Shown piece by piece: positions 3,366 through 12,577 of a stretch of DNA of 12,577 bases; position 1 is the stretch's first letter, and the number at the start of each line of letters is the position of its first letter. This stretch comes from Pseudomonadota bacterium (lineage in GTDB: Bacteria; Bdellovibrionota; FAC87; UBA2466): NCBI GenBank assembly GCA_043718025.1, contig JAYSWN010000067.1:1-12577 (forward strand), given 5' to 3'. The notes under the pieces were generated by a model. That model saw only the letters and a program-made list of their open reading frames with translations. It searched no databases and was not told where the DNA came from. The position numbers and the translations under genes were made by a program.

Positions 3366-4409
3366 ATGATTAAGACAAAAGGCTTTGCCGCCCAAAACGC
3401 AAAATCACCGTTGGCCCCTTTTTCTTTTGAACGCCGCGATCCCGGTCTGCACGATGTACTTATCGACATTAAATTCTGCGGCATCTGTCACTCTGACATT
3501 CATCAGGCGCGCGACGAATGGGGAAATGGCAAGTTTCCCATGGTGCCCGGCCACGAAATTGCGGGCGTGGTGGCGCAGGTGGGAGGCAAGGTCACCCACT
3601 TTAAAGTGGGCGATAAAGTTGGGGTCGGCTGTTTTGTAGATTCTTGTCGCAACTGCGACCCCTGCGAGCGCAGCTTGCAGCAGTACTGCGAGCAGGGCTC
3701 GTCGAGCACCTACAATGGATTTGAACAGGATAAGACCACGCCTACGCAAGGCGGATACTCTAACTGCATCGTCGTCGACGAGCATTACGTGCTGCGCATC
3801 CCCAACAACCTCCCGCTCGATGGTGCGGCTCCGCTGCTTTGTGCGGGTATCACTCTGTACTCGCCGTTAATGCATTGGAAGGCGGGCCCGGGAAAGAGAG
3901 TGGCCATCGTTGGTTTAGGTGGGCTGGGCCACATGGGAGTAAAGATTGCCAGCGCACTGGGTGCGGAGGTCACCGTGTTGAGCCAATCTTTAAAGAAGCA
4001 AGAAGACGGAAGGCGGCTGGGCGCCAAGCACTTTTATGCTACGTCTGATCCCAATACTTTTAAGGAACTGGCGGGAAGTTTTGATCTGATCATCAACACA
4101 GTCTCTTCACCCATGGACTGGAATCAGTACCTGACGCTGCTTAAGCTCGACGCCACCATGGTGGTGGTGGGCGTGCCAGAAAAACCCGTGCCGCTTTCTG
4201 CCTTTTCACTGGTAATGGGCCGTCGCAGCCTGGCCGGTTCGCTCATCGGCGGAATTGATGAAACGCAAGAGATGTTGGACTTCTGCGGTAAGAACAACAT
4301 CACCAGCGATATCGAAGTGATTCCCGTCACCAAGGTGAACGAGGCTTACGAACGAGTGCTTAAGAGTGACGTGCGCTACCGTTTCGTAATTGATATGGCG
4401 ACGCTCTAA
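3366..4409 (+). CDS. NAD(P)-dependent Zn alcohol dehydrogenase, cinnamyl-alcohol dehydrogenase (AdhC/YahK-like) family
   Basis: CGICHSD, VPGHE, structural Zn site CxxCxxCx7C, APLLCAG, GLGGLG Rossmann motif and C-terminal VRYRFVID. Start is ATG 3366 or GTG 3357. Confidence 0.95.
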
Positions 4410-4431: not shown

Positions 4432-4469
4432 CGGCCTTTCTTTTTCTAAAGAAAGGCCGCTCTTTGTTT
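4432..4469 (+). terminator. Intrinsic terminator after the ADH gene
   Basis: Perfect 12-bp stem CGGCCTTTCTTT-TTCT-AAAGAAAGGCCG (4432-4459) followed by CTCTTTGTTT, 22 nt after the stop. Confidence 0.75.
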
Positions 4470-4573
4470 GGGAACCAAGCATCCATATGAGCGCCGAGGG
4501 TAGCGGCGAGCGAAACCCGAAAAGCGGCAGGAGAGGGGGCTCTTTCCTCTCTGAGCGGGCGCATTCTCGCCCT

Positions 4574-4604
4574 CGTCGTTGCGAGGCCGCAGGCCGAAGC
4601 AATC
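4574..4604 (+). repeat. REP-like palindromic element, left copy (GTCRTTGCGAG...GAAGCAATC class)
   Basis: CGTCGTTGCGAG-GCCGCAGGCC-GAAGCAATC with internal hairpin GGCC-GCA-GGCC. It is inverted relative to the copy at 4747-4779. Confidence 0.75.
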
Positions 4605-4605
4605 C

Positions 4606-4731
4606 TCACACGGTGGAATAAAGGTCATTCCATTGAGGGTTCAAACGGTCGATAAGCTCTACTTTTCTCCGCCGAGGTCCTGCCTTGAGCTGTTTTTCAC
4701 GTTGAATGGCTTATAAAACTCTGTCTCTCAT
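4606..4731 (-). pseudogene. Remnant of a small GIY-YIG nuclease family gene, internally deleted
   Basis: One frame reads MRDRVL*AIQREKQLKAGPRRRKVELIDRLNPQWNDLYSTV*. The tail matches the AIxREKQxKxxxRxxKxxLIxxxNPxWxDL C-terminus of small stand-alone GIY-YIG proteins, and the GIY/YIG core is missing. Confidence 0.8.
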
Positions 4732-4746
4732 CAATCATCGGCCAAA

Positions 4747-4779
4747 GATTGCCGCGCCACTTCGTGGCTCGCAAGGACG
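4747..4779 (-). repeat. REP-like palindromic element, right inverted copy
   Basis: GATTGCCGC-GCCAC-TTC-GTGGC-TCGCAAGGACG. CTCGCAAGGACG is an 11/12 reverse complement of 4574-4585, and GATTGC complements GCAATC. Confidence 0.75.
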
Positions 4780-4996
4780 GGTGGGGAGCGTACCGCCAAC
4801 TTTTAAGGGAAAGAGGCAGCAGGGGTAGGGTGCCTTTAGCACTAGCCCGCCCTGTCAGCTTGTGGGGGCTACGCGATTTATTTCTGGCGATTTAACCGTT
4901 TGAATTCAGGCAGCATTTGTTAAAACCGCAGGGGCGGTGACGTAGATTGTCTCTAGGCGTACGCCGCCAAAACTCTTACAATGCGCTTCTTCTTCA

Positions 4997-12436: not shown

Positions 12437-12439
12437 CTA

Positions 12440-12503
12440 GTTCCTGTCGGGAAATGAAAATATCCGCCCGAAGGGCGGGCCTAAATTTCTTCCCGACCGG
12501 AAC
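12440..12503. terminator. Long hairpin closing the folE operon
   Basis: Outer stem GTTCCTGTCGGGAA / TTCCCGACCGGAAC and inner stem CCGCCC-GAA-GGGCGG, starting 3 nt after the stop. Confidence 0.6.
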
Positions 12504-12531
12504 GTGTCCTGAGGCGCAGCCGAAGGATCTC
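12504..12531 (+). repeat. REP-like element (TCCTGAG...CGAAGGATCT class)
   Basis: GTGTCCTGAG-GCGCAGC-CGAAGGATCTC has the same stem/GAG/hairpin/GAA/stem layout as 4574-4604 with a different stem sequence. Confidence 0.55.
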
Positions 12532-12577
12532 GTTGTACCCGGCAGAGCCGTTCTTGAGGCACGCTCGCCTGTGCCCA

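Follow-up and report, generated by a model that had tools for sequence, protein, structure and literature searches.

A deleted GIY-YIG nuclease gene between CGTC-tagged hairpins, enclosed in ISL3-type ends and likely copied in trans

In the RAYT/REPIN systems, an HUH (Y1) transposase is paired with GTAG-tagged REPs. Hairpins are also found beside genes of another kind, the Ssn nucleases (cd10448), which are associated with NTS/SRM hairpins; in the available part of Chenal et al. (2025), mobility of the hairpin-ssn-hairpin unit was hypothesised and not shown (PMC11893778). As to CGTC-tagged REPs, which have stems of 8-9 bp and loops of 4-5 nt and are grouped into families 1-4, the available part of Di Nocera et al. 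(2013) states that no transposase was found for the CGTC repeats, and that the CGTC dimers of H. neapolitanus were always within a longer palindrome (PMC3733652).

The locus described here lies in the window, i.e., the whole stretch of 12,577 nucleotides analyzed from genome G000 (assembly GCA_043718025.1, contig JAYSWN010000067.1). It consists, in this order, of an ISL3-type end, a hairpin, a deleted GIY-YIG gene, a second hairpin and another ISL3-type end (Table 1). A zinc alcohol dehydrogenase gene, which ends at 4409 and is followed by a terminator at 4432-4459, lies on one side of the element, and an alpha/beta hydrolase gene on the other. The original prediction, made from the letters of the window, was of two inverted palindromic repeats around about 140 nt; these are CGTC-tagged hairpins spaced 142 nt apart. 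Folding showed that the hairpin stems were interrupted and that the CGTC tag was terminal and unpaired, in a doublet arrangement. The hairpins were also predicted to bracket the unit, and here only the hairpins themselves stood, since the limits of the unit were found 36 and 38 nt further out. The spacer next to the upstream hairpin was probably a piece of the original nuclease unit. The fold of the whole element was weak (z=-1.9) and an Rfam scan of the window gave no match. The runs containing the window stretch were sediment metagenomes of one study, with no RNA dataset among the runs listed. No empty site was found, the synteny in five relatives stopping at the alcohol dehydrogenase gene, and no joint skipping the element was found in four runs.

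Table 1. Coordinates of the window element, its candidate target duplications and two further doublet families of the same genome
Feature	Position	Strand	Basis or remark
Whole non-autonomous element, 280 bp	4538..4817	-	flanks of genomic copies diverge sharply at both points; run contigs likewise
Terminal repeat matching ISL3 downstream end (IRR) of the same bacterial family	4792..4817	-	window copy has 1 mismatch to the shared pattern
Spacer with GCTCCCC-type motif	4780..4791	-	related motif 5' of homologous genes; same position in G022 and G031
Upstream CGTC-tagged hairpin, tag outward	4747..4779	-	sequence and fold; 23 genomic matches
GIY-YIG gene 5' remnant, codons 1-9, true start codon at 4738	4713..4738	-	comparison with C124
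GIY-YIG gene 3' remnant from codon 63 to the stop, shifted out of frame	4606..4712	-	comparison with C124
Downstream CGTC-tagged hairpin, tag outward	4574..4604	+	sequence and fold; 23 genomic matches
Outer arm with second ISL3-type terminal repeat (about 4538-4563)	4538..4573	+	other copies fit the ISL3 upstream-end pattern
Candidate target-duplication 9-mer, right flank	4529..4537		agrees with left flank at 6/9 only
Candidate target-duplication 9-mer, left flank	4818..4826		C missing at -9, as in no other of the 15 left flanks
Second doublet family	G000 C2:20578-20769, C37:570-750, C51, C67, C87, others
Fourth family, hairpin doublet in perfect 15-bp terminal repeats	G000 C173:39658-39913, C189:1-256, C80

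The nuclease gene had been predicted from a minus-strand tail of 34 amino acids (AIQREK...YSTV), whose stop (4608-4606) indeed lies 1 nt from the left hairpin. Searches of Pfam and NCBIfam with the tail alone gave no match; contig C124 of the same genome nevertheless encodes an intact GIY-YIG protein of 97 amino acids that ends in this tail. The gene is internally deleted, as had been proposed, 161 nt being absent from the window copy relative to C124. The deletion sits between 4713 and 4712, from codon 9 to codon 63, and removed Y10, Y21, R31 and H35; the window copy is unable to make the nuclease. The 5' stretch from the hairpin to the junction was identical to the C124 copy (34/34 nt), the 3' remnant differed at three positions in 108 nt, and the junction showed no microhomology. 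The reading frame given in the original prediction was wrong at its start. The ATG at 4731 is an out-of-frame codon, the gene starting at 4738 in another frame (MIDERQSF...) that gives 13 amino acids and then a stop, and the TAA read ahead of the tail is a codon created by the deletion junction.

The C124 copy was the intact paralogue with the same flanks that had been looked for. Its gene, the only stand-alone one among three GIY-YIG matches in this genome, lies between inverted CGTC-tagged hairpins and encodes 97 amino acids with a PF01541 domain (E=6e-16) and no other domain. Y10, Y21 and E68 of the protein are spaced as Y6, Y17 and E64 of SsnA, a comparison of spacing only and not of an alignment. 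A sequence search of the PDB with the intact protein found no relative at E<=0.01. Judged by sequence, the protein is Ssn-like: its size, domain and residue spacing fit, and the qualified name was chosen because its hairpins do not conform to the SRM pattern as published, from which they depart by at least 4-5 substitutions and out of register. An exact match to the SRM pattern was present somewhere in 10/80 metagenome homolog loci. It was also observed that the C124 copy (L001 2031-2092) carries a 62-nt duplication of the gene's 3' end and the downstream hairpin, joined at a point 2-3 nt beyond the CGTC tag on its outer side.

The repeats were expected to be multi-copy, and 23 genomic matches were obtained for each hairpin. 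The hairpin matches formed 24 clusters on 22 contigs, 11 of them at contig ends, and therefore correspond to about 20 loci. Both hairpins were visible in 17 units, 16 of which were internally deleted. With the C124 copy as the reference, although it is not necessarily ancestral, eight units on six contigs shared one junction (one unit shifted by 1-2 nt), four units on four contigs shared another, and four units, the window copy included, had unique junctions; microhomology was 0-1 nt across all 16 deleted units. An intact copy together with at least six different internal deletions in one genome bears out the predicted collapse of a repeat-nuclease-repeat unit into non-autonomous doublets. Different target duplications were found among members of both shared-junction classes, and spread after deletion is the simpler explanation of identical junctions at separate loci. 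Both shared junctions were also present in run contigs; altogether, three family junctions and the sharp ends recurred in independently assembled run contigs. Head-to-tail arrays occurred on C49, C163, C200, C27 and C66, and flanks were swapped between C66 and C49 and between C200 and C163, by recombination between copies or by mis-assembly. When the element was removed in silico from seven sites, no long reading frame ran across, which is consistent with intergenic insertion.

The copies remained alike for 38 nt past the upstream hairpin and for 36-37 nt past the downstream one, with a GG(C/T)TCT terminus on both sides. Genome G007 has an intact ISL3 element (428-aa transposase, PF01610; C6:431329-432773), and between its downstream end and the majority form of the family's left end only 3/24 nt differed. 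A single 26-nt pattern recognized the family at either end, with 24 matches in G000, as well as ISL3 ends in G007, G023 and G030. At the right end the ISL3 match was at pattern level only; no ISL3 with an upstream end close to the right arm was found. In the metagenome and genome collections, scans of which may omit records of the element's own genome, the exact right-end pattern had no matches and the left-end pattern had one, an ISL3-type end in a family member. In a sample of the phylum, the left-end pattern was present in 8/33 genomes of the bacterial family versus 2/367 others. The outer arm of the window copy at 4538..4573 was more decayed, with 5/36 nt different from C124, and was absent among the listed pattern matches. 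Two other sources of the ends were rejected. The PF01609 gene on C61, the sole one in G000, has no such ends, and the ends are not native to Ssn units, as 0/83 homologous loci had them within 250 nt. In G023, only 6 nt separate two adjoining ISL3 ends, an arrangement resembling the junction of a circle or of a tandem (L270, C6:5833-5890).

Further, the 9-mers flanking the eight complete copies that have both ends on one contig were compared. They matched at 9/9, 9/9, 8/9 and 8/9 positions at C53, C99, C100 and C207, while the other four copies had no clean duplication (6/9 in the window, 6/9 in C124, 4/9 and 3/9). Among 202 flank pairs drawn across contigs, two were perfect and no other exceeded 6 of 8 free positions. 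The 9-mer opened with C in 14/15 left flanks (-9) and in 14/14 right flanks (+1). True ISL3 ends in G007 behaved in the same manner: five of seven had a partner end, and all five carried an 8-9-bp duplication with a leading C on the same side. ISL3 transposases were found in 17/33 other genomes of the bacterial family. None was found in the G000 assembly (92.4% complete, 234 contigs) or in three congeneric genomes, and a 50-nt ISL3 end remnant was present on C18 of G000. A search of G000 for IS256-type transposases found none.

We proposed that the window stretch is an internally deleted, non-autonomous hairpin-GIY-YIG-hairpin element in ISL3-type ends that was likely copied in trans by an ISL3 transposase. 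This enzyme, rather than the nuclease, is held likely to have spread the unit because of the ISL3-type ends, the target duplications and the recurrent deletion junctions. The self-moving, RAYT-like unit of the original prediction was not supported, as the mobile termini are found beyond the hairpins, agree with those of ISL3 and have ISL3-type target duplications beside them. An Ssn-like unit would have come between the ends of an ISL3 that had lost its transposase gene; an ISL3 enzyme would have moved both full and deleted forms in trans, duplicating 9 bp with a leading C, and deletions would have stripped the nuclease from every copy but one. The nuclease would be cargo and not the motor. 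Its predicted activity is the nicking of single-stranded DNA immediately beside the hairpins, on their outer side, and some truncations and tandem arrays may stem from it. That ISL3 enzymes may act in trans on such ends is suggested by analogy with MITEs, MICs and TIMEs, as far as these are treated in the available parts of the literature (PMC4133298, PMC10969869).

Other hairpin families were present in the same genome. A second family of CGTC doublets, about 190 bp long, had 51 ends adjoining hairpins in G000 and a conserved TTTCCTNAG context, and was often nested in further repeats. A transposase fragment of IS5 type (DUF4096) on C117 has an end that matched the termini of this family, and a different doublet within the same IS5-type termini was found in the congener G003. 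The inner part of this family was weakly like the 3' flank of the intact G022 homolog (score 59 versus a shuffle maximum of 53). The end of a third hairpin family, of the GTCCTGAG...GAAGGATC type and with a long outer hairpin, occupies positions 12437-12577 of the window. Its 15 genomic matches fell into two subtypes, and since nearly all of them lay where contigs end, its body is unassembled; similar ends adjoin GIY-YIG homologs in G008, G030 and G004. The termini of a fourth family were also found in G012 and G029, and no transposase was identified for them when one was looked for. In G000, hairpin doublets are enclosed in three ways: by ISL3-type ends, by IS5-type ends and by the 15-bp termini of the fourth family. 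On C209, C180, C102 and C35 of the same genome, a gene of about 310 amino acids with a C-terminal motif, which we take to be HNH-like, was present in at least four copies.

Homologous nuclease genes of other genomes were examined at 83 loci with full flanks, 10 of 93 having been dropped for short flanks. As expected from the original prediction, intact homologs were also associated with hairpins, and inverted hairpins, recognized by our own pattern, stood on both sides of 43/83 genes. A GCTCCCC-related motif lay upstream of 11/83 genes, eight of them in the same bacterial family. It was observed that in this bacterial family a GCT(C)CCC-type motif lies about 40-75 nt 5' of the nuclease genes, inside or outside the hairpin (L015, L014, L016, L017, L018, L019, L020, L023 and L025). 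The sampled hairpins of the relatives (up to 13 loci per genome) were mostly without conserved arms or IS ends, and IS ends are therefore not the general route. Genome G005 had a single intact homolog and 142 hairpin matches, many of which formed tight doublets whose flanks varied; it is a better genome than G000 for testing IS-free spread.

Several other readings were weighed against the spread by an ISL3 transposase. It is conceivable, though rather unlikely, that the cassette depends on two enzymes, the ISL3 transposase inserting it and the hairpins with the Ssn-like nuclease being needed to build cassettes or promote their movement. Contrary to what would be predicted for passive cargo, the hairpins varied less than the sequence between them: variable columns numbered 9/64 in the hairpins versus 22/55 in the cargo (p=0.0016, calculated post hoc for related copies that were found via their hairpins). 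Stem repair, host selection or the very method of finding copies may explain this conservation as well. In addition, 4 of about 9 outer-arm junctions (C27, C38, the C124 duplication and C17) lay 0-4 nt outside the CGTC tag, close to the cut of SsnA as given in the available part of its description (PMC11893778); the tally was made by eye, the numbers are small and the p value of about 0.02 is post hoc. Some of these junctions had microhomology, and the activity of the nuclease is predicted. The enclosure of doublets by three kinds of ends in G000, and by IS5-type ends in the congener G003, also speaks for the second enzyme. Together, the hairpin conservation and the junctions near the tag hint at a role for the nuclease. 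A more specific model, in which Ssn-like nucleases make hairpin-carrying MITEs, is considered doubtful: nicks beside the CGTC tags would fuse the unit to available IS ends, and the IS transposase would amplify the product.

It is improbable that the GIY-YIG protein itself moves the unit in a RAYT/REP-like manner, with the ISL3-like arms as inert hitchhikers. In favour of it, no other intact gene for a candidate enzyme than the GIY-YIG gene was found in the assembly, relatives such as G005 abound in bare doublets whose flanks vary, and an IS-like origin was suggested in the available part of Chenal et al. (PMC11893778). However, the breakpoints and duplications fall at the tips of the ISL3-type ends, at a distance of 36-38 nt from the tags, and follow the same C rule as true ISL3, and SsnA is described in that part as cutting, strand transfer not being shown there (PMC11893778).

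We give little credence to the reading that the 161-nt deletion at the window locus arose in assembly or belongs to some strains only, in which case the locus could hold a full-length gene and the family would stand as described. In runs X1 and X2, the sole contig through the gene core had the alleles of the window copy and continued into the core, and the 161-nt joint of the window copy was not listed in the run contigs, while three other family joints were. Word-graph assemblers need microhomology for a mis-join, however, and this junction has none. Moreover, run contigs drop variants and prove presence only, and both loci with their flanks exist in X1 and X2; graph simplification could be the cause of the missing window junction in these contigs. 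Finally, full-length copies may have inserted first and gene conversion may later have spread the shared deletions, with the deleted forms never transposing, and the arrays and swapped flanks could reflect such recombination (or mis-assembly), but this is hard to credit, as the same junction would have to be converted repeatedly into 4-6 loci and transposition of short forms is simpler.

Carriage by ISL3, the reading preferred here, would provide a route of multiplication for CGTC/SRM hairpins, giving them amplification without a mover of their own. The G000 series comprises an intact gene, nested deletions, near-bare doublets and arrays, with defined ends and target duplications, and as a candidate transposase can be named in a relative, the question of mobility becomes simply testable. 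The ISL3-based explanation leaves the bare doublets of other genomes unexplained. The results extend Ssn-like genes to a hairpin class missed by the published pattern, a possible source of new specificities of single-stranded DNA cutting. If the hijacking of IS ends were true, CGTC repeats would lack a dedicated transposase since they would repeatedly use the enzymes of other families, in a life cycle with two enzymes.

No report of ssn genes or CGTC doublets inside ISL3 ends was found in a literature search that covered few subscription journals and ran without ISfinder. The following comparisons refer to the available parts of the cited sources. The mobility of such units was originally said to be poorly characterised; the pairing of gene and repeat is already known from Ssn, whereas its mobility was indeed only hypothesised there (PMC11893778). 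Like an ssn locus, the unit has a single-domain GIY-YIG gene of about 95 amino acids between two inverted CGTC-tagged hairpins, with the Tyr/Tyr/Glu spacing of SsnA (PMC11893778); it differs in hairpins off the SRM pattern and in being multi-copy in ISL3-type ends, with target duplications and nested deletions. The outward CGTC tags and heterodimeric doublets are those of CGTC-tagged REPs, but the present doublet goes back to a nuclease gene, and an IS family is identified as the source of its outer arms (PMC3733652). With IS-derived MITEs and mobile insertion cassettes such as QMITE2 (PMC5896051) and TIMEs (PMC4133298), the element has in common that it is short, transposase-free and, on the reading preferred here, moved in trans, and that it has terminal repeats of about 25 nt and variable duplications of 7-9 bp; QMITE2 of Coxiella likewise carries a REP within a MITE and has REP-like short forms (PMC5896051). 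Unlike these MITEs, the element carries a complete nuclease-hairpin unit, of which both an intact founder copy and a series of deletions exist, and QMITE2 has a GTAG REP and is described without such a nuclease gene (PMC5896051). As in RAYT/REPIN systems, a gene between inverted repeats yields non-autonomous doublets; however, the enzyme here is GIY-YIG with no HUH, the tags are CGTC and not GTAG, and the limits of the unit are IS-type termini with duplications, 36-38 nt beyond the hairpins, and not the REPs. The element is not a RAYT/REPIN system; it works like an IS-derived mobile cassette with an Ssn-like unit as its cargo.
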